Of a DNA stretch of 64,000 nt, positions 1-11,070 are shown piece by piece (the stretch's first letter is position 1; every line of letters starts with the position of its first letter). The DNA comes from Mobula hypostoma (Eukaryota). The stretch covers positions 59,770,001 through 59,834,000 of the forward strand of contig NC_086097.1 of the NCBI RefSeq assembly GCF_963921235.1. Direction: 5' to 3'. A program made the position numbers and the translations under genes. Under the pieces are notes generated by a model, which had not been told where the DNA came from, searched no databases, and saw nothing but the letters and a program-made list of their open reading frames with translations.

Positions 1-142
1 ACATAGTACCAATGAGTGTAAACAAGGCCAATGAAATGGTTCTCATTTAATATACTAAGAAATCTCCCTGCTTCAGTTCCTTGGACTTTTGACTGCTAAG
101 CCACACGTGACAGTTGTCTGCAGGCAACAATGCAACACATTA

Positions 143-708
143 AACTCAGTGGCCACTTTATTAGATGTACCTCTATGCCTGCTCTTAATACAAATATCTA
201 ATCAGCCAATTATGTGGCAGTAACTTAATGCATAAAAGCATACATATATGGTCAAGAGGATCAATTGTTATTCAGAACAAACATGAGAATAAGGAAGCAA
301 CGTGATCTAGGTGATGCTGACCATTGAATGTTTGTAGGTGCTAGATGGGGTGGTTTGTGTATCTCAGAAACGGCTGATCTCCTGGAATCTTTACACACAA
401 CGGTCTCTAAAGTTAACAGTGAATGGTGTGATTTAAAAAAAATCCTGTGAGCAGCAATTCTGTGGGCAAAAATGCCCTGTTAATGAAATTGGTCAGAAGA
501 GAGTGGTCTAACTGATTCAAGCTGACAGGAAGGTGACAGTAACTCAACTCATTATGTATGACAATAGTAGTGTGCAGAAGAGCATCTCTGAGAGCACAAC
601 ACTTTGAACCCTGAAGTGGATGGGCTACAGTATCAGATGACCTCAAACATACACCCTGTGACCATTTTATTAGGAACAGAGAGTACCTAATAAAGTGGCT
701 AGTAAGTG
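143..708 (+). mobile_element. Internally deleted Tc1/mariner-type DNA transposon
   Basis: Imperfect terminal inverted repeats (ACTCAGTGGCCACTTTATTAG at 144-164 vs CTAATAAAGTGGCTAGTAAGTG at 687-708) flanked by TA at 141-142 and 709-710. The region 485-630 translates to a stop-riddled transposase DNA-binding remnant (LIQADRKVTVTQL...SISESTTL*TLKWMGY). Confidence 0.8.
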
Positions 709-1264
709 TATTTCCCATACTTTCTGAGTAAAGCTGCATTGTAAAATTGAGGGAAACTAGAAAAACATTGAATTAAAGTTAAAATATGGACCAGGAATTT
801 ATTTTCATTGTCACTGTTGAATTATTCTCATTGTAATCTATGGTTTTCTAGCTCTGTGGTTCTGCAGAGATCTGTAGACATTCTTTCTAATATTGTGTAG
901 ACAACAGTTGGGGAAGTGTTGCTGAATAGAAGTTTGCCTTGCAAGAAGCCAGAACCATAACTGGTCCTTCACTCTTAAGGCTGTCTAATGCTTAGACCAT
1001 GCCTGTGAAGGTGGCAAAGCAGATTTGAGACTTTGGAGATATGAGAAGCAAAGACTGATTATATTAGGTATGCTGTAAAGTCCTGATGCCTTTTCTTATT
1101 TTATACCTTGAACTCCTCTTAGTATGTAATTGCCACATGTATCCCAGAAGGTGATACATCCCAACAGATGATAAAATAAAATAATCGGCATATATTCCCA
1201 GTGTTAATGTGAAATAAAACAGAGCTGAATTGCAAAATCTTCTGAGGAATAATCGGCAGGGATG

Positions 1265-1570
1265 ATGGTAACAGCAATGGTTATTGCTGTTACCTCAGAA
1301 ATCCAGGTTCGATCCTGCCCACGATTGTTTTCATGTGAAATTTATATATTCTCCCTGTGACTAGATAGAATTCTTTCCACGTGCCAAAGATGTACTAGTT
1401 GCTAGGGTCATCGGCTGTTATACATTGTATCTAATGTGGGTAGATGGCAGGAAATCTAGTGATGCAGAGGAGTTGATGGGAATGTGGGGAGAAAGTTGGG
1501 ATTTGTTTAGGTGGGATGTGTAATTGGTGGGGCTGCGATGAGCTGAAGAGCTTGCATTTGTTTTCTATGA
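1265..1570 (+). mobile_element. Decayed tRNA-derived SINE (HE1/V-SINE-like)
   Basis: B-box GGTTCGATCC at 1306-1315 followed by a V-domain-like tract (TTCTCCCTGTGACT...TTCCAC...CCAAAGATGTAC...GCTAGG). Heavily diverged. Confidence 0.6.
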
Positions 1571-1970
1571 ATCACACATACCTAAAAGGGAGTGGCAAGG
1601 GGTGTGCTTGCTGGTTATTGGGGTGATGAAAGACACCGTGATTTACATTTGAAGTAGATATTCTTCCTCATCATTCCCGTGTTTGATTTTGAAGATTCAT
1701 GCTGAGAATGGAATCTTTGGCACAATCAATTTGTGAAAAAGGAGCAAACTCTCTGCCAGATGAACTCTGCCAGAGAGAAACAAATTCTTGATGGTTCAGA
1801 TTGAAACCTCTGCATTAGGACTGAGTTAGCAGATTGCTTATTGCTCCATGTTCCAGCATTAGCAATCTTTTTGTCATGGTCCAGGCCGTCCCTCCCGTTT
1901 GTTCCTCACGTTCTCCTAATTCCCCTTTCCCTGTGTTTCTCCTGCTCTCCTGTCTATCTCTCTCTCTGTT

Positions 1971-1979
1971 TGTGTGTGA

Positions 1980-2023
<44 letters not shown>

Positions 2024-2133
2024 CTGTGTGTGTGTGTGTTTTTGTGTGTATGTGTGTGTGTGTGTGTTTCTGTGTGTGTGTGTGTGTGTTTCTGTGTGTG
2101 TATATGTGTGTGTGTGCGTGTGTGTGTGTGCGC

Positions 2134-2167
<34 letters not shown>

Positions 2168-2184
2168 CTGTGTGTGTGTGTGTG

Positions 2185-2222
<38 letters not shown>
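1971..2222. repeat. Imperfect (TG)n microsatellite inside the 5' LTR
   Basis: About 250 bp of TG dinucleotides with TTTC, TA and CG interruptions. Confidence 0.98.
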
Positions 2223-2224
<2 letters not shown>

Positions 2225-2569
2225 CACGGTTGGTGCAGCGTTCCTTTTGTTCTCCCGGGCTTCCTGATTGCGACGCACCTGAATCTCATCTAACCTGCAG
2301 CATAAGTACCCTGGCTTTCCATCCACTCGTCACCAGATCGTTGCTTCAGCCAGTGTGGCTGTTCACATTCTAGGCTACTTAGAATTATGTATTCTAAGTT
2401 TCATTTCTGCGCTGTTGTTTGCCTGTGTTAACTCTGTCTCTCTGTGTTAACAGGAGCATTGCATGCCGCCTGCCTTCCCGTTCATCCTCCTGCCTGTCGT
2501 TCTCCTCCAGCCACGCTCACAACCTGGTCTGCATCCCTGCTCTGCCTCGTCCCACTACCCACCCACACT

Positions 2570-2640
2570 CTCTGCTGGCTTAGCGGTTAAATGCCGCACT
2601 CTCACCGCAGCAATCTAGGTTCGATCCCCAGTCAAGCTTC
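2570..2640 (+). ncRNA. tRNA-Glu(CTC)-like pseudo-tRNA / Pol III cassette in the 5' LTR
   Basis: A-box-like TGGCTTAGCGG, anticodon loop CTCTCAC and B-box GGTTCGATCCC. The acceptor stem does not pair. Confidence 0.7.
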
Positions 2641-2774
2641 GCTCTTTCTCCTCTGCTTTCCTCGGCCTAATCCTCACTCCCCTGCCTTCCCTGTAACCAT
2701 TAATACACACTCTTCAGATTACTCTACCTCCATGTCAGTGTCCTGCGTTTGGGTTCACCCGTTCCTCGCAACAG

Positions 2775-2784
2775 AACGATCTGG
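2775..2784 (+). promoter_or_regulatory. Self-priming primer binding site
   Basis: AACGATCTGG just 3' of the 5' LTR is the exact reverse complement of CCAGATCGTT at 2333-2342 inside the LTR. Confidence 0.85.
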
Positions 2785-2789
2785 CCACC

Positions 2790-3790
2790 ATGGACCCAGC
2801 AGACACAAACACCATCCAACAAGCCCTCGCCAGTCAGGGTTCCCTACTGGGACAGCACAACCAACACCTCCGGGAGGTCATGGAGAACCTTCGTTCCCTG
2901 TCTGCTCACGTCACACAGATCGGTAACCAGGTGGACCATGTCTCCACTCATATCACTCAACCCACACCTGGAACCCAGCCTAGCCAGCCCAGACAGCCTG
3001 TAGCGGTAATCCCCCAAGCTTCACCAACACCCCTGCCCAGAGACCCTAACGTACCAGAGCCGGAGCACTACGCTGGAGATCTGGGGAAGTTCCGGGGTTT
3101 CCTCCTTCAATGCTCCCTGGTGTTTGAGCAACAGCCGTTGACCTACTCCACAGATAAGTCTAAAGTTGCTTATGTCATTGGGTTTCTGAGGGGAAACGCA
3201 TCAACGTGGGCCACAGCACTTTGGGACAACCAACCTGATATCTGCTCCTCTCTCGCCAGTTTCATTGCGGAGATGAGAATAGTCTTTGATCACCTAGTCC
3301 GGGGTAAAGACGCCGCTAAGTGCCTACTCACTCTCTGCCAGGCCTCCCTCAGTGTCACTGAATATTCAGTGGAGTTCCTGACATTGGCAGCCGACTCGGG
3401 GTGGGACGATGAGTTGCTCCGGGGGGATTTCTGGGTGGACTTAGCGACCTGGTGAAGCATGAGCTGGCGGCAAGAGACGATTCCGACAGCCTGGATTCCC
3501 TGATCTCCCTGTACACCAGGTTGGACAATCGCCTCTGGGAGCACCGTAGAGAGAGAACTGGTTGTCAACCATCTTTGGCCACTTCTCGGCTCTCTTTACC
3601 GTCTCTCGCCAGAACAGGCCTCTCTCCCACTTCTGCACCCCGAGTAGATCCCAGCCCTGCCGATTCGACTGCCCCGGGAGAGGAACCCATGCAGTTGGGG
3701 CGGGCCCACCTTTCTCCCGCTGAATGACGCTGGAGAATAAGAGCGGGCGAGTGACTATATTGTGGTCAGTCCGGACACTTCATTGCCACG
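2790..3790 (+). pseudogene. gag: gag of sushi-type element (frameshifted)
   Basis: MDPAD start, coiled coil, capsid motifs (PEHYAGD...GFLLQC...KVAYVIGFLRGNASTWA), EEPMQLG, and a broken zinc knuckle (*LYCGQSGHFIAT). Frameshift near 3430-3450. Confidence 0.92.
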
Positions 3791-4052
3791 TTGACTGGCC
3801 CACCGGGAAGGTAGTCAGCTGGAGCTCGTTCTGCCATTCCTCTTGCCTGCAATCAGCCCTTCCCCCTGTGGAGGTCACTGCGACCTGGTCCGCCTATGAC
3901 CCCTGACTTGTTCACTGTTCTCGTAGAATATCATGATCTTGGAGATATGTTTAGTAAGCAACGGGCCCTTTCTCTGCCTCCACATCACGATTGACCTTCT
4001 CCCCGGAGCCTCATTACCCACCAGTCGGCTGTATAGCCTGTCCCGTCCAGAA
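3791..4052 (+). pseudogene. pol: pol remnant (protease C-terminus to pre-RT linker)
   Basis: DWPTGKVVSWSSFCHSSCL, EYHDLGDMFSKQRALSLPPH and IDLLPGASLPTSRLYSLSRPE are typical of the region just before Gypsy RT. The protease active site is deleted. Confidence 0.85.
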
Positions 4053-6364
4053 AGCATACAAGCAAAGTCCAAAGATAAAGCACAAGGTGGTGAGAACTGA
4101 TCTGAAAAGGGTAATTTTGAAACAATTCAGTTGTATTCTAAGGATAAAATGCCAGATCTGTTTTGTAATGAGAAATTAGAAGAAAAAGAGATCAAGTTGC
4201 CAGTTGCTTTATCCAAGCCTAAAACAGATCTTGAAGATGAACAAAGCAAAGACAAGAGTAATAAGCTGAAAAATGTGGCAGAGTATGTGGAGGAGGTGGA
4301 AATTACCAAAAGTAACGAAATGCAAGAGAGTCATAAAGTGGAGTATGATCATTCAGGATCCAAAGCTGACCTGCATACAGATATCAAATGTAACGTTCCA
4401 TTATATTGGCTCGTGTATGTCTGGGGGAAATCCCGCCCAACACCCGCTTCAACACTCCGCTCAGGGTCAGTCGCCGCCCGAATCAATCACAAACATCAAT
4501 CATCAGCCAGCACACCCAGTAAATTTTTAACAAATACACTTTATAGATATTACTAATTCTATGACATTAATATACATTTGATACAGAGAGGAAAGTAATG
4601 GGAAAAAAAAGGCGCCAACACTTATCAAAGTCCAAGTTCTTCGCGCGCTACGTTGGAGCTCAATTCGACTTCAGACGACCACCCGAATTCCGTCAACTCA
4701 CAGCTCGGGACCACCCTGAGTGATCGACCGGAGCCTCTCCGCACGTCCGCCGTCCTCCTCGTCTCTCCTCTGACTCCCCGCCAAAACCCAGTCCACAGTC
4801 ATATCATACAGCATGGCATCGGAAAACAAAACGATACATAACCACCCATTGGCTAATAGAACCTTGTTATCATCATTTTAAAGTAAAACGAACTGTTAGC
4901 GCAAACTCTCTGCAGCATTAAAACACAACAAAGCCGCATTGCCCAGATTAACATAACAAAATCGCCATTTTAAATGTAACAAAAGAAAGACCCCGTACAC
5001 AAAAATGAAGAAATTGTAGAAGGGAAAAAAGATATTGTACATTTTGAGTTAAGGGAATGGCATTTAGGAGAAGATGAAACAAATAGTACAGGAGAAAATT
5101 CTGAAAATACATTCTCAATGTCAAGTGAAAAATTTGAAAATGATCTGTCTAATAATGAAGGAACTGATATAGAAAATTCCCAGTTGCATTTAAAAAAAAG
5201 CAGACTGGATACTAAGGAAATTGCACGCGCTTCTCCAGGAAACGGTGCAAATTCAAAATTTGATAAAAATCTGAAGACAAATTAGAGGAGAAAACTGAAA
5301 CCTTTGAAACTGAAAGAGGCAAAGCTGAGCCGAGGGAGAATTTAAATTTGGGAGAGAAAGAGCTTGAAACTGAGCAAGATGAGACTGGAAGATGTTTAAT
5401 ATCTCTTCTGGTTGAAGAACAAACTGAAGAGCCAGCTCATGAACAGTTAGCAAAATCAAATGAGATAAATATTCATCTAAACTTGGAACAACATGGATCT
5501 TTACATATCCCTTATGTGGCAGCTTCTCCTGGTGATCCAACTACAAAAGATTCGAATCTTTTTCATCCAATTGTTGCTAAAGCACAGTTTGTTCATTATG
5601 ATCCTTCTTCACCAGCTACTCCAACACTTGATGAAAATTTTAGCTACGAGGCACCTTCTAGTATTTCAGACTCCAGTGTGCCTTCTGTGGAAGGTCCTGG
5701 AAAGCAAAAGGCTCACAGTTCAGAAAATGTTGCCAAGGAATCGTGTGCTAAAAATCAAGCTGAAGAAATGGACGTCAAATGCGAGCCACCAAAAGTGGAG
5801 TTGCAAGAGTTGCCAGTTCAGCAGGATATTGTGTCAGAAATAAACACAGGTGCCATAGATGAACTGAAAGATGAAGATCTGACTGGGGAATCTGTCACAG
5901 GTGCTGGAGAGCAAAGTTCCACCAAAAACGAAAGAAAGCCCAAGCTCCAGTAGAAAATCCTCCTAAAAGGAGACATCTTCATTCAGAGGAGAAATCCGCT
6001 GTAGTGGATGAACCCGTTGAAGCCATACCAGTTCAAGCACAAGAGGAAGAAAGTCCAACACAAACACGACAAAAGACGACAAATGTTGAAGATAAAGCAA
6101 GAAACCAGACCAGTGATGCAAGTAACCAGAATAAACCAATCACTCGTGCAGCTAAGAAAGTAAGCAGTTCTGAGCATTTGTCTGTAACTGAGTAAGAAAA
6201 GTGTTCACTGACTTCCACAAAAGAGAAACCAACAACTGATTTAAAGTCGGGAAAATCTCCAGCACCAGTATCAGTTACAAGATCAAGAAATCAACAATCT
6301 CCTGTGATTAAACAAGGGCGTAAAAGAGAAGCAAGTCCAGAACGCAAAAGACGACAACATAAAA
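4053..6364 (+). pseudogene. BOD1L1: Captured intronless cellular coding fragment, acidic and disordered, BOD1L1-like C-terminal region (identity tentative)
   Basis: Long E/K/S-rich frames (ORFs 4131, 5348, 6004, 6304) broken by a few stops/frameshifts and one insertion, with no TE motifs. The motif order KPITRA...KSP...RKREASP...QHK recalls the vertebrate BOD1L1 C-terminus from memory. Capture is well supported; the gene name is not verified. Confidence 0.5.
4389..4999 (-). mobile_element. Solo LTR inserted in the captured fragment
   Basis: TG...CA termini and a 4-bp TSD CAAA (4385-4388, 5000-5003). Removing it rejoins the frame DIK|NEEIVEG. Orientation is inferred from a CCAAT motif on the minus strand. 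Confidence 0.85.
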
Positions 6365-6688
6365 CTCAAACTACCCAGATCCATGCACATTCATCCGACG
6401 TTCCATGCCTCCCAACTGAAACTTGTGTCTGTCAGCTCTTTGTGCCTTCCTGCCAAACCCCTTCCACCCGTCCGGATTGTCGACAATCACCCAGCTTACA
6501 CCGTCCGGCGAATACTGGATGTGAACTGCCGAGGCAGGGTTTTCCAGTACCTCGTCGATTGGGAGGGATACTGTCCTGAAGAGCACACCTGGATCCCCCG
6601 CTCCTTCATCTTAGACCCCTCCCTCATCCAAAACTTCCATTGCGACAATCTGGGCAAGCCTGGTGGTTCGCCTGGAGGATCCCGTTGA
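6365..6688 (+). pseudogene. Integrase C-terminus with chromodomain
   Basis: [19 protein letters not shown] (end of the GPY/F module), then YTVRRILD...[18 protein letters not shown]. Confidence 0.95.
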
Positions 6689-6696
6689 GGGGGGTA
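6687..6696 (+). promoter_or_regulatory. Polypurine tract
   Basis: GAGGGGGGTA immediately before the 3' LTR. Confidence 0.9.
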
Positions 6697-6697
6697 T

Positions 6698-6809
6698 TGT
6701 CACGGTCCCGGCCGTCCCTCCCGTTTATTCCTCATGTTCTCCTAATACCCTTTTCCCTCTGTTTCTCCTGCTCTCCTGTCTGTCTGCTTCTCTCTGTTTG
6801 ATTGTGTGT

Positions 6810-6843
<34 letters not shown>

Positions 6844-7393
6844 CGGCATGGTGGACGTGGCGTTCCTTTTGTTCTCCCGAGCTTCTTGATTGCAGCTCAC
6901 CTGAATCTCATCTGATCTGCAGCATAGGTACCCCGGCGTTCCATCCACTCATCGCCAGATCATTGCTTCAACCAGTGTGGTTTTTCACATTCTAGGCCAC
7001 TTAGAATTGTGTACTCTAAGTTTTGTTTCCGCGCTGTTGTTTGCCTGTGTTAACTCTGTCTCTCTGTGTTAACAGGAGCATTGCATTCCGCCTGCCTTCT
7101 CGTTCATCCTCCTGCCTGTCGTTCTCCTCCAGCCACGCTCACACCCTGGTCTGCATCCCTGCTCTGCCTCGTCCTGCCACCGTCTTACACTCTCCACTGG
7201 CTCAGTGGTTAAACGCAGCGCTCTCACCGCAGCGACTCGGGTTCGATCCCCGGTCAAGCCTCCATCACTCCTTGGCTTTCCTCTGCCTAATCCTCACTCC
7301 CCTGCCTTCCCTGCAACCATTAATAACCACTCTTCAGATTAATCTATCTCCATGTCAGTGTCCTGCATTAGGGTTCACCCGTTCCTCACAACA
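6698..7393 (+). repeat. 3' LTR
   Basis: Starts TGTCACGG, ends ACAACA and is followed by the TSD; short (TG)n at about 6803-6843. Confidence 0.95.
7191..7260 (+). ncRNA. tRNA-Glu(CTC)-like pseudo-tRNA / Pol III cassette in the 3' LTR
   Basis: TGGCTCAGTGG A-box, anticodon arm GCG-CTCTCAC-CGC and T-arm TCGGG-TTCGATC-CCCGG. Confidence 0.75.
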
Positions 7394-7559
7394 CTTTTGT
7401 CCTGAGATAAAGGAACACCATCAGTGAGTAATATAATTCGACAACTGGATAAAGTGGTTAATATGAAATTCATGGAAGAAAATGGTTTCTTCTGCCTTGG
7501 ATTATATCATGAAAGCTTTGGTACTAATTTTGGGTTCATATGCGAAAAAGCCACCACAC

Positions 7560-8550
7560 ACAAGATCACAAGACAAAGGAGCAGAAATAGACCATTCGGC
7601 CCATCGAGTCTGCTCTGCCACTCAACCATGAGCTAAACTATTCTCCCATCTAGTTCCAATTTCTGGCTTTTTCCCCATATTCCTTGATACCCTGACTAAT
7701 TAGATACCTGTCAATCTCCTCCTTAAACACCCTCAATGATCGGGTTTCCACAGCTGTATGTGGCAACGAATTCCATAAATCCACGACCCTCTGGCAAAAA
7801 AAAATTCTCCTCATCTCTGTTTTAAATGGGTACCTTGTAATTCTAAGACTGTAGCCTCTTGTCTGGACTCACCCACCAGGGGAAACAGCCTTTCCACATC
7901 TACTCTGTCCATCCCTTTCAACATTCAAAATGTTTCTATGAGATCCCTTCTCATTCTTCTTCTATACTCTAATGAATACTGTCCAAGAGCCTAAATAATA
8001 ATCTAAATTATAATCTAAATAGTCTAAATAATAATCTGCCAGATTATTTTTTCTTCCAAAATGTACAACCGTACATTTCTCAACATTGTATCTCATCTGC
8101 CATTTCTTTGCCCGCTCTCCTAAACTGACCAAGTCTCTCTGCAACCTTTCCATTTCTTCAACACTTCCTGCTCCTCCGCCTGTCTTGGTGTCATCTGCAA
8201 ACTTAGCCACAAAATCGTTTAATCCATATTCTAAATCATCAATATACAATGTAAAAAGAAGCAGCCCCAACACTGATCCCTGCGGAACACCACTAGTAAC
8301 CGGCAACCAATTAGAATAGCAACTTTGATGTGTGTTGCTTGAATTTCCAGCATCTGCAGAATTCCTGTTGTTTACCAATTAGAATAGGATCCCTTTATTC
8401 CCACCCCTTGCTTTCTGCCTATCGGTCAATGCTCCACCCATTCCAACATCTTTCCTGTAATTCCATGGGCTCTCATCTTATTAAGCAGCCTCTTATGTGG
8501 CCCCTTATTGAAGGCCTTTTGAAAATCCAAATATACAACATCCACAGCCT
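7560..8550 (-). mobile_element. CR1 LINE 3' fragment (RT remnant and tail)
   Basis: SGVPQGSVLG...KFADDTK in ORF 7962-8378; CR1-type 3' UTR and short repeat tail at the left end; internal deletion near 7990-8040. Confidence 0.92.
8320..8373 (+). mobile_element. 54-bp Penelope-like terminal fragment inserted in CR1
   Basis: Matches the PLE terminus seen at 25453-25510; flanked by the duplication ACCAATTAGAATAG (8306-8319, 8374-8387). Confidence 0.8.
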
Positions 8551-9669
8551 TTCATGAGGATTAATTCACAAAGAAAAGCTTCATCAAAATGCTGTTTTCA
8601 GATAAGTCTTAGAGCTGAAAATTAACTCTGATTCTCTTTACACAGATGCCTACTGACCTGCTGAATGTTTCTAAATTTTAAGTCAATTTGATTTTTATTG
8701 TGTTTGTATCTTGACCTGTTGTGATACTGTGTTTTGTGTTGATAATTTCTCTTTCCACTTTTTTGAGAAAATGGCAGTTTGAATGGGCATATCAAGGGAT
8801 AGTAAATGAATTCCTTCATGAAGTAGTGGGATTCTAGTAAGAACAACTAAAAGATTTTTTAGAGTGACCTCCATTGCCCAGCTTTGCCAGGAGAGGAGTT
8901 GGATCTAATTGTCTTTTGCTGGATTAAATGGAAGATGGCCTATTTTCTAAATACTCAGGACCTGCTGATTTTCTTTTGTCAAACACAGGAAAGCTCTGCT
9001 GGGTGTGTGATAACAATGAAGCTGGTTCTCTTCAGTGAAGGAGCACTCTTCGTTACAAACACTTCTGAATAACAAATACTCAGGAGTTCTTCCTGAATCC
9101 TGTGGCCAATGTCACTGGAGTACTACTATTCGACTGCTGAATTATTTATTTTAACACAATGAAATGAAATCAAATTATATTATATTATAGCAAAGAGGGA
9201 ATTTCTACACCAGCTTGTGAAGTTTTGATTCTCAGGAAGACAAAAAATGCCTTTTTAATCAAATTAAAATCATGAGCTTTACTACCTTGACTGAACTTTG
9301 TAACACTACACACTTTAAATCTAGGTATTAATTTTGAGTGCACTTTTCTTTTATTGTTTTTGTTGTTTCATGTATTGCTTTGTCTGCCTGGAGCTTAATA
9401 AAGAGCTGAAAGCCAGCGGGCTTTTCATGTTGAAAGACAATATAAAAAAACTATGGGACATATTGTTATCGCTCTCCACTGAGCCAGGGCAATGAAACAG
9501 GCTGGTATCAAACTGAAGGAGAAAATACAGAATATGTTGCACACACCCAAATTAATAACCTGCCCTAGTCTGAATGAAACTGTATGGCCAAGTCAGAACA
9601 CAACAAGAATTGTGTATTTTATTTTGAAAATTAGTTTGATATAATATAGAAATAAAGCAGAGAGCAAAG

Positions 9670-11070
9670 TTAAAGTTCAATGTAAATTTATTATCAAAGT
9701 CCATACTATATATGTCCCATAGTACTTGAGATTTATTTTCTGGCAGACATTCATAGTAGAACAAAGAAATACAATGGTATCAATGAAAAACTATACACAA
9801 ATAAAGACTGACAAACAACCGAGAAGATAACCTGTACAAAACCAATAAATTAATAAATGCTGTGAACATAGTTGGGTTTTCCTGTTCGCCGATCTTGGTA
9901 CCTTACCTTCAAGTGTTTTGTCACCATGTGAGGAGATATCATCAGTGAGCTGTTGATTGTAGTGTGACCTCCAAACGCTCAGCGGATTGGACATCATTCC
10001 GGAATCTCAATTGTGATGTGCAGGGGAAATCTCATTGCTGATTGGCTGTGTGGCAAACTTTGTGCATCGTGGTCTAGAATTTTGCCCACGCTGGCTCATA
10101 AATAGGATTGAAGTCTACATGTTGGTTTACAGAACTGTTCATGGAAAACAATGCTTCTAGGAATTCTTGCTTTCACTGATACCCAGTTGAATTTGCGCCT
10201 CTCTCAATCTTCATGGGTAGAGTCTTGCGACTGGTAGTTGATGTTCATGGATCCTTCTGGAGAGTTTTCTCACAGTTTTTCTAATATGATAGTTGCTGCA
10301 GTCCCAGCATTGGATTTTGTAGATTACATTGGTCTCGTCCAATAGCTTGGTTTGGTCTTTTGTTCTGCAAATTACTTTTCTTAAATTTTCTGTTGGCTTG
10401 TGCAAAACTGAAATTCTATGCTCTTGGAATAATCAAGCCATCCTTTCCGGGGTATTTTGAATGTATGGAATAACAACCTGTTTCGTCTCTTCTTGGCTGG
10501 TATGTTTTCGACCTTGTTGGCATCTTTGTATGAAGTTCTGCAGGAATCTATTTCATGTGAATACCTTAAAGAAATGTTTCTCCTCTTTATCCTTTAATTC
10601 CTCCATGCTGCAGGGTGTCTCTGCTCTTCAGAACAAAGTTTTGAAACCACTCTTCTGGTGTGCATTTGGGTGGTTGCTGTGATAATTTAAGATCTTATCT
10701 GTATGCGTTCTTTTAATGTAAACTAAAGTTTCCAAAGAGCCATCTGTGTTTCTACTGACAAACACGTATTCATCTTCTGAATTATTTACAATTGAGAACA
10801 TAAGCTGTAGAGTCCTTGAAAGTGAGTCCATCGGTTCAGGTGAGTGAACCTATCCACACTGGTTCACTATCCTAATGGTTGAAGGGTAATGACTGTTTCT
10901 GAACCTAGTGGTGTGGGACCCAAGTCTCCTATACCTCCTTCCCGAGGCAGCAGCAAGAAGAGTGCATGGCCTAGATGTTTGACACCTTTGATGATGGATG
11001 GTGCTTTCTTGTGACAGTGATGAATGGTGGGGAACTCTTTGCCTATGATGGAATGAGCTGTATCCACTAC
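9670..11070 (-). mobile_element. Rex1/Babar-type LINE 3' end, split by a PLE
   Basis: CHKKAPSIIK...HLGHALFLLLP motif (ORF 10867-11067). The 3' UTR at 9670-9870 resembles 18650-18815. Confidence 0.7.
9872..10762 (-). mobile_element. Penelope-like element, family 2 (RT thumb and GIY-YIG remnant)
   Basis: VYIKRTHTDKILNYHSNHP and TNVIYKIQCWDCSNYHIRKTVRKLSRRIHEH; degenerate hammerhead core at 9910-9950. Confidence 0.85.

Follow-up and report, generated by a model that had tools for sequence, protein, structure and literature searches.

The chromoviral LTR retrotransposon at positions 1872-7393 of the window, that is, of the whole 64,000-nucleotide stretch of DNA that was analysed, is a Tf1/sushi-type element of a myliobatiform ray. 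It lacks RT, RNase H and the integrase core and has instead ~570 codons from the 3' end of BOD1L1, a host gene. It is read, with a probability of about 0.9 for the scenario as a whole, as a decayed non-autonomous chromoviral copy in which spliced BOD1L1 was captured by template switching and which then spread in trans. RT probably switched onto a co-packaged BOD1L1 mRNA and back, replacing RT, RNase H and the integrase core. One founding capture would have taken place around the Mobula/Hypanus split, the spread would likely have been accomplished by the enzymes of pol-bearing siblings, and later template switching would have deleted interior parts and brought in ROCK1, CCDC93 and, after them, CUL1, the subfamilies also recombining with one another. 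The RNAs that founded subfamilies may also have been filtered for an unbroken frame across the new joins, a step for which, taken alone, the chances appear evenly balanced.

Structure of the window element and identity of its cargo

The element is flanked by the TSD CTTTT, and its parts are arranged in the window as follows.

1867-1871, plus strand: 5' TSD, CTTTT, with its second copy at 7394-7398
1872-2773, plus strand: 5' LTR (TG...CA), made longer by a (GT)n tract, 86-91% to the 3' LTR
2333-2342, plus strand: self-primer site inside the LTR, exact reverse complement of the PBS
2775-2784, plus strand: PBS of the self-priming (Tf1/sushi) type, pairing with 2333-2342 at 10/10 positions
2790-3789, plus strand: gag (Pfam PF03732, 1e-07; PF16297, 2e-10; PF19259)
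3786-4054, plus strand: pol remnant, comprising the protease-RT tether and the first RT residues, 81-88% to pol-bearing siblings
4050-4054, plus strand: 5' switch point, microhomology GAAAG common to pol and BOD1L1, in frame
4050-4388, plus strand: captured BOD1L1, first part, from codon 1238 of P0001; end of the giant exon
4389-4999, minus strand: solo LTR (TG...CA) of another, younger family, 611 nt, with TSD CAAA at 4385-4388 and 5000-5003
5004-6366, plus strand: captured BOD1L1, second part, with exon-exon junctions near 5807, 5881, 5986, 6101 and 6281
6362-6366, plus strand: 3' switch point, 5-nt microhomology, out of frame with the integrase tail
6365-6688, plus strand: integrase C-terminal remnant, partial SH3 and chromodomain (PF00385, 2e-09; PF24626, 1e-04)
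6687-6694, plus strand: PPT
6698-7393, plus strand: 3' LTR
7394-7398, plus strand: 3' TSD, CTTTT

The LTRs, PBS, PPT and TSD, which a first-pass annotation of this DNA had described as retained, were all located, and the K2P distance between the two LTRs is 0.143 (638 sites). The gag domains of the window copy lie within 2790-3455, and the gene is disrupted by a frameshift near 3413-3455 and by stops. Its 3' end is a deletion of ~0.4 kb at 3786-3789, private to this copy, which took the protease active site; unlike in the window copy, the protease region is retained in other full-length chimeras. A tRNA gene was sought in window positions 1-10000 and none was found. The solo LTR at 4389-4999 is not present in the other chimeric copies and is a later, private insertion. 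Its family gave 39 other scored matches at 95-97% identity among 2,392 candidates, some of them in same-strand pairs ~6.5 kb apart, so that full-length members of that family exist. A different 610-nt insertion, at L120:4370-4980, lies a few bases from the solo-LTR site of the window copy, possibly a favoured target. Downstream, in window 7545-64000, no host gene is evident among ORFs of at least 130 aa, and the long ORFs are mostly, judging by their motifs, CR1-like LINE and Penelope-like RT remnants.

The break in pol lies where the first-pass annotation had placed it, halting at ...SRPE (codon end 4052) and restarting at LKLP (6365). In the pol-bearing sibling L121 the same two joins enclose RT, RNase H, zinc finger and rve domains, in the order RT-RNase H-integrase, in agreement with the earlier claim that RT, RNase H and the integrase core had been replaced; the protease ORF of L121 gave no Pfam match at 0.001. 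Twenty pol-bearing siblings were examined, of which none carried a host fragment, and in those placeable on both sides the join positions are typically 2.3-2.8 kb apart. The insert, estimated previously at about 1.7 kb without the solo LTR, measures 1,697 nt once the nested solo LTR and its TSD are excluded. The BOD1L1 sequence replaces the pol interior and is not an interruption of it. Each founding join, when checked for junction microhomology as had been proposed, displayed 5 nt of it (GAAAG at the 5' join). The 5' join, correctly described before as in frame with pol, is so in 16/16 instances retaining it. Of 48 instances of the 3' join, 46 break the frame with the SH3/chromodomain remnant; gag-pol distances of 179, 180 and 181 nt are all seen among copies. 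Most of the pol-bearing siblings (L122-L140) have ~2.3 kb between the join positions against 2.8 kb in L121, the stretch after RNase H being missing, and this type constitutes a second, larger deletion subfamily without host cargo.

The identity of the cargo, proposed initially from the order of C-terminal motifs, was established by comparison with proteins and with the parent locus. A 228-aa frame of the insert yielded ten protein matches, eight of them named BOD1L1 (from sharks and rays; best E 3.8e-116), and is 88% identical to P0001, the BOD1L1 of Mobula hypostoma. Two shark proteins annotated as 'neurofilament heavy polypeptide-like' or left unnamed (P0009 and P0010) correspond to C-terminal parts of BOD1L1 and are probably split annotations. 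The parent gene is located at G000:C5, 89.71-89.76 Mb, and the insert maps to six of its exons at G000:C5:89.737-89.758 Mb with 86-94% identity, the first part (4050-4388) matching G000:C5:89736670-89737002 at 92%. The six last exons of the parent, when spliced, give 577 codons identical to the tail of P0001. All five parent introns (668, 16,714, 143, 806 and 1,103 nt, all GT-AG) are missing from the insert, which settles the question of intron loss for which alignment to the parent had been recommended. The cargo starts within the giant exon and ends eight codons short of the parent stop, directly on element sequence; poly(A) and an own TSD were sought at its ends and neither was found. The cargo is therefore spliced host sequence and not a TE protein, and its splicing, the microhomologies and the replacement geometry sustain the capture of an mRNA by template switching that had been suggested.

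Family size, later captures and cis signals

At least 69 loci contain one or more host fragments, a lower bound since the loci were picked through the DNA matches themselves. BOD1L1 alone is carried by 31 of them and all four genes by 16, while the rest combine ROCK1, CCDC93 and CUL1 (9), ROCK1, CCDC93 and BOD1L1 (8), CUL1 and BOD1L1 (3) or other pairs (2). A 24-nt pattern of the 3' join gave 44 matches, nearly all at already sampled loci, against 1 for the reversed control, and the pol-type pattern at the same site gave 240. In 18 of the 69 loci both ends could be placed with a TSD of at most one mismatch, all in different flanks and on many contigs. These distinct TSDs, together with a 3' join common to dozens of loci, support the earlier proposal of a multi-copy family mobilised in trans. 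The LTR-pair distances are 0.06-0.145 in BOD1L1-only copies and mostly 0.11-0.17, as rougher estimates, in multi-gene copies, two values (0.03 and 0.08) coming from unreliable alignments. Every copy whose reading frames were examined is broken.

Several loci (L083, L100, L106, L153 and L157) are head-to-tail tandem elements sharing one LTR, and L193 (G000:C59:57.750 Mb) and L094 have repeated LTR-like units between captured gene pieces. In the multi-gene lineage the LTRs are long, at 0.8-1.1 kb, and contain internal repeats. Five further loci (L162, L164, L165, L167 and, on the minus strand, L163) are miniatures with an interior of ~0.4 kb and bits of ROCK1, CCDC93 and BOD1L1, and they resemble TRIM elements.

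As a rival origin, a LINE-made processed pseudogene might have inserted in an existing LTR element, with segmental duplication giving rise to the copies. The genome is rich in CR1-like LINEs, and two locus pairs (L098/L105 and L092/L101, merged or dropped in the tests) do resemble segmental duplicates. However, 2.3-2.8 kb of pol has been replaced rather than interrupted, the cargo both begins and terminates inside coding exons, and the joins show microhomologies instead of poly(A) or TSD. Moreover, the copies differ in TSDs and flanks and are dispersed over many contigs. The replacement geometry and the distinct TSDs refute this origin, which is thus considered extremely improbable.

The additional 1.07 kb of interior present in several copies of the chimeric family is made up of ROCK1, CCDC93 and cullin pieces. 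The ROCK1 piece was named by PDB 8p0s (E 2e-07) and the CCDC93 piece by Pfam CCDC93_N (PF21673, 3e-22) and PDB 8f2u. For the cullin piece, Pfam Cullin (PF00888, 5e-12) gives only the family, and the paralogue is presumably CUL1. The ROCK1 parent lies at C1:196.877-196.887 Mb (3 exons spliced in copies), that of CCDC93 at C18:187.16-187.21 Mb (as many as 9 exons, with another piece of 2 exons) and that of CUL1 at C5:160.94-160.99 Mb (8 exon pieces in copies). The locus at C59:57.75 Mb, considered as ROCK1 parent, was rejected, as it is another chimeric copy. The three sets of pieces are joined at GT-AG sites with the parent introns absent, and the spliced parents read open. Two of the four donors thus lie on C5, at loci 71 Mb apart, and the other two on C1 and C18.

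The ROCK1, CCDC93 and CUL1 pieces sit 5' of the same BOD1L1 end, the commonest order being LTR, PBS, gag stub, ROCK1, CCDC93, CUL1, BOD1L1 3' end, SH3 remnant, PPT and LTR. Copies that reach the 3' end share the BOD1L1 join or a deletion derivative of it, and therefore the simplest order places BOD1L1 first. The tree of the shared 3' piece (45 rows) is nearly star-like and rejects a single multi-gene clade (p-AU 0.013), so that the order of capture is one that we infer from the shared joins. The rejection of that clade is compatible with recombination, the tree itself giving no rooted order. Recombination between subfamilies is shown by the mosaic L107, which runs from CCDC93 through the pol tether into BOD1L1, then into another CCDC93 piece and back into BOD1L1. 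When a fifth captured gene was sought, 22 unexplained internal stretches of at least 60 nt were encountered, none of them common to copies at one site; they have the appearance of repeats inserted later, each into a single copy.

Self-priming is a mark of Tf1/sushi chromoviruses according to the available part of PMC6317226. A PBS/LTR pair with at most one mismatch was detected in 33 of 64 loci against 1 control, one of the 33 being an edge artefact and some long LTRs having been missed by the 900-nt window of the search. At position 5 of the self-primer, in the 41 loci where both sites could be read, the pair is A-T in 16/16 BOD1L1-only copies and in 13/14 siblings, while the 11 multi-gene copies have G-C (5), G-U (2), A-T (3) or no pairing (1). 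This two-sided change from A-T to G-C suggests that the derived lineages went on replicating by self-priming. As in the Tf1/sushi (V-clade) chromoviruses described in that part of PMC6317226, the family has an integrase-end chromodomain, a self-priming PBS and a 5-bp TSD, and its siblings show the same gag-PR-RT-RH-IN order. Unlike them, the chimeric members do without RT, RNase H and the integrase core. The placement was made by chromodomain, self-priming PBS and domain order.

Selection on the cargo and the reading-frame bias

The earlier annotation had also raised the possibility of a Gag/Pol-host fusion. On this account a Gag-protease-BOD1L1 protein, or a four-gene one, would have been functional for the element or the host and kept for that reason. 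The frame-compatible 5' join (16/16) and the shared joints upstream of the 3' join in the lineage retaining gag and protease (8/8 in frame) agree with a fusion, and the chromodomain is left unfused. Constraint was assessed by a dN/dS test from which CpG sites were removed and in which only changes common to 4-6 or more copies were counted, a threshold of 3 copies having been discarded as too open to parallel changes. In the gag/protease of pol-bearing siblings w is 0.27-0.32 (p 5e-06 to 0.002), indicative of purifying selection, and in the chimeric gag/protease it leans below 1 without reaching significance (0.55-0.75, p 0.07-0.3). By the same test, in contrast with the 0.3 of the siblings, the cargo changes as if neutral, with w of 0.70-1.23 for BOD1L1 and 1.11-1.30 for ROCK1, CCDC93 and CUL1 together, neither significant, the power of the test being low because few changes are shared (9-26 in BOD1L1). 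A selected fusion protein is not supported by such absence of amino-acid constraint on the cargo. Furthermore, the cargo is largely dispensable, 288-1,125 nt of it having been lost in successful subfamilies, and all copies with examined frames are broken. The CUL1-bearing lineage attained at least 20 copies despite shared one-base indels in 21/23 and 19/22 copies and several shared stops. A functional fusion is accordingly deemed unlikely.

The bias in frame is nevertheless apparent in the joints that were propagated. Among 42 joint types, 15 of the 19 common to at least two loci are in frame against 9 of the 23 confined to a single locus (Fisher p 0.013), several joints being nested and hence incompletely independent. 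A null built on the codon phase of length-matched chance matches predicts 8.0 in-frame shared joints (P 0.001), and one with blast overlap lengths predicts 9.3 (P 0.006), both nulls taking exact or blast-measured microhomology only. The private joints, with 8.5 or 9.4 expected, display no excess. The bias has exceptions: four of the 19 joints in the shared class do not keep the frame, although one of the four is mixed (18 out and 9 in), and the CUL1-bearing lineage multiplied with its shared indels and stops. Such a bias could be purely mechanical, provided that switches use longer imperfect similarity, which is codon-phased in coding sequence, and selection would then be unneeded. The in-phase share of chance matches does grow with length, being 0.41 for 5 nt and 0.69 for at least 10 nt, some joins have a long imperfect overlap (16 nt at ROCK1/CCDC93), and some of the private joints may be deletions left by DNA repair, with shorter homology. 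Against it, the excess survives the null that allows for blast overlaps, private joints with an equal expected rate are unenriched, and the in-frame shared joints include some with 0-3 nt of exact homology. The mechanical account is possible, although we would not call it probable.

The contrast between shared and private joints points to frame continuity without amino-acid constraint, and we read this as a leaky frame filter on the RNAs that found subfamilies rather than as a functional fusion protein. Such a filter would most likely act via translation-coupled RNA survival or packaging and not through the function of the cargo protein. A broader reading, put forward tentatively and at somewhat less than even odds, is that the self-priming Gypsy families of rays may be serial exon-shuffling platforms in which only frame-keeping RNAs replicate well, so that selection on transposon RNA, and none on the protein, would mass-produce in-frame multi-gene fusions and disperse them under LTR promoters. 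If this were true, it would be a rule of general validity as to which captures become amplified, and the abundant retrocopies of cartilaginous fishes would have a source other than LINEs.

Known systems, dating and transcripts

The capture mechanism is already known from LTR-mediated retrocopies (Tan et al. 2016), maize Bs1 and the mouse 'Super' retrocopy; the new aspects are the scale of the present case, its surviving intermediates and its bias in frame. Tan et al. (Genome Res 26:1663, PMC5131818), in the part of that article available, report LTR-mediated retrocopies in flies, mosquito, zebrafish, chicken and mammals, with re-retroposition and with mostly sense, in-frame cargo, the mouse 'Super' retrocopy joining four genes at one locus. 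As in those cases, an internal part of the ORF has been replaced by a partial spliced mRNA without poly(A) or TSD, the switch points show comparable microsimilarity (median 6 bp there, 5 here) and the product underwent further retroposition as a non-autonomous element. The cases in that available part of PMC5131818 are single loci or have few insertion sites, in contrast to at least 69 loci in one- to four-gene stages here. Unlike them, the ray family offers shared and private joints which permit a test of frame selection, and cartilaginous fishes lie outside their sampling. Maize Bs1, as portrayed in the accessible portions of PMC5131818 and PMC13317346, is a defective LTR element that has incorporated spliced pieces of three host genes; it has 1-5 copies, all sharing switch points, and is reported to be a chimeric gene that undergoes transcription and translation. 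In the ray family, too, one element can unite pieces of several unlinked host mRNAs, all four being present at 16 loci. The family differs from Bs1 in its dozens of copies and four donor genes, and nothing in it indicates constraint at the protein level. A 2026 survey (10.64898/2026.06.26.734816) ties vertebrate retrocopies to non-LTR elements in the portion available, and its main text there is without BOD1L1 or CUL1, its supplements being where these loci may be listed. A literature search, with most subscription papers outside its scope, returned no report of the ray family and none linking BOD1L1 to such an element; the corresponding search on frame selection in non-autonomous LTR elements found nothing.

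The founding capture, the deletion series, the three captures that followed and the recombinants preserved in one genome amount to an unusually complete vertebrate fossil record of LTR-mediated capture, and the family allows testing what decides the amplification of a captured mRNA. Moreover, retrocopy counts in cartilaginous fishes may largely reflect amplified LTR elements.

Dating was based on BOD1L1 protein sites. The copies carry the derived state of Mobula plus Hypanus at 67 of 68 sites differing among species and are ancestral at 20/23 sites derived in the lineage of this genome and at 27/29 derived in Hypanus. These states place the capture after the Pristis split and around that of Mobula and Hypanus. 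The element/host joins are bridged by contigs of three other organisms (X10 record 1, X5 record 22 and X11 record 15), and in this comparison the exon junctions are crossed by contigs of all four runs, three of them of unrecorded kind. Four runs presumed to be RNA, and possibly DNA, gave parent-type contigs plus a few low-depth ones across the element joins, namely X13 records 1 and 7 (depth 4-10), X17 record 12 and X20 record 26.
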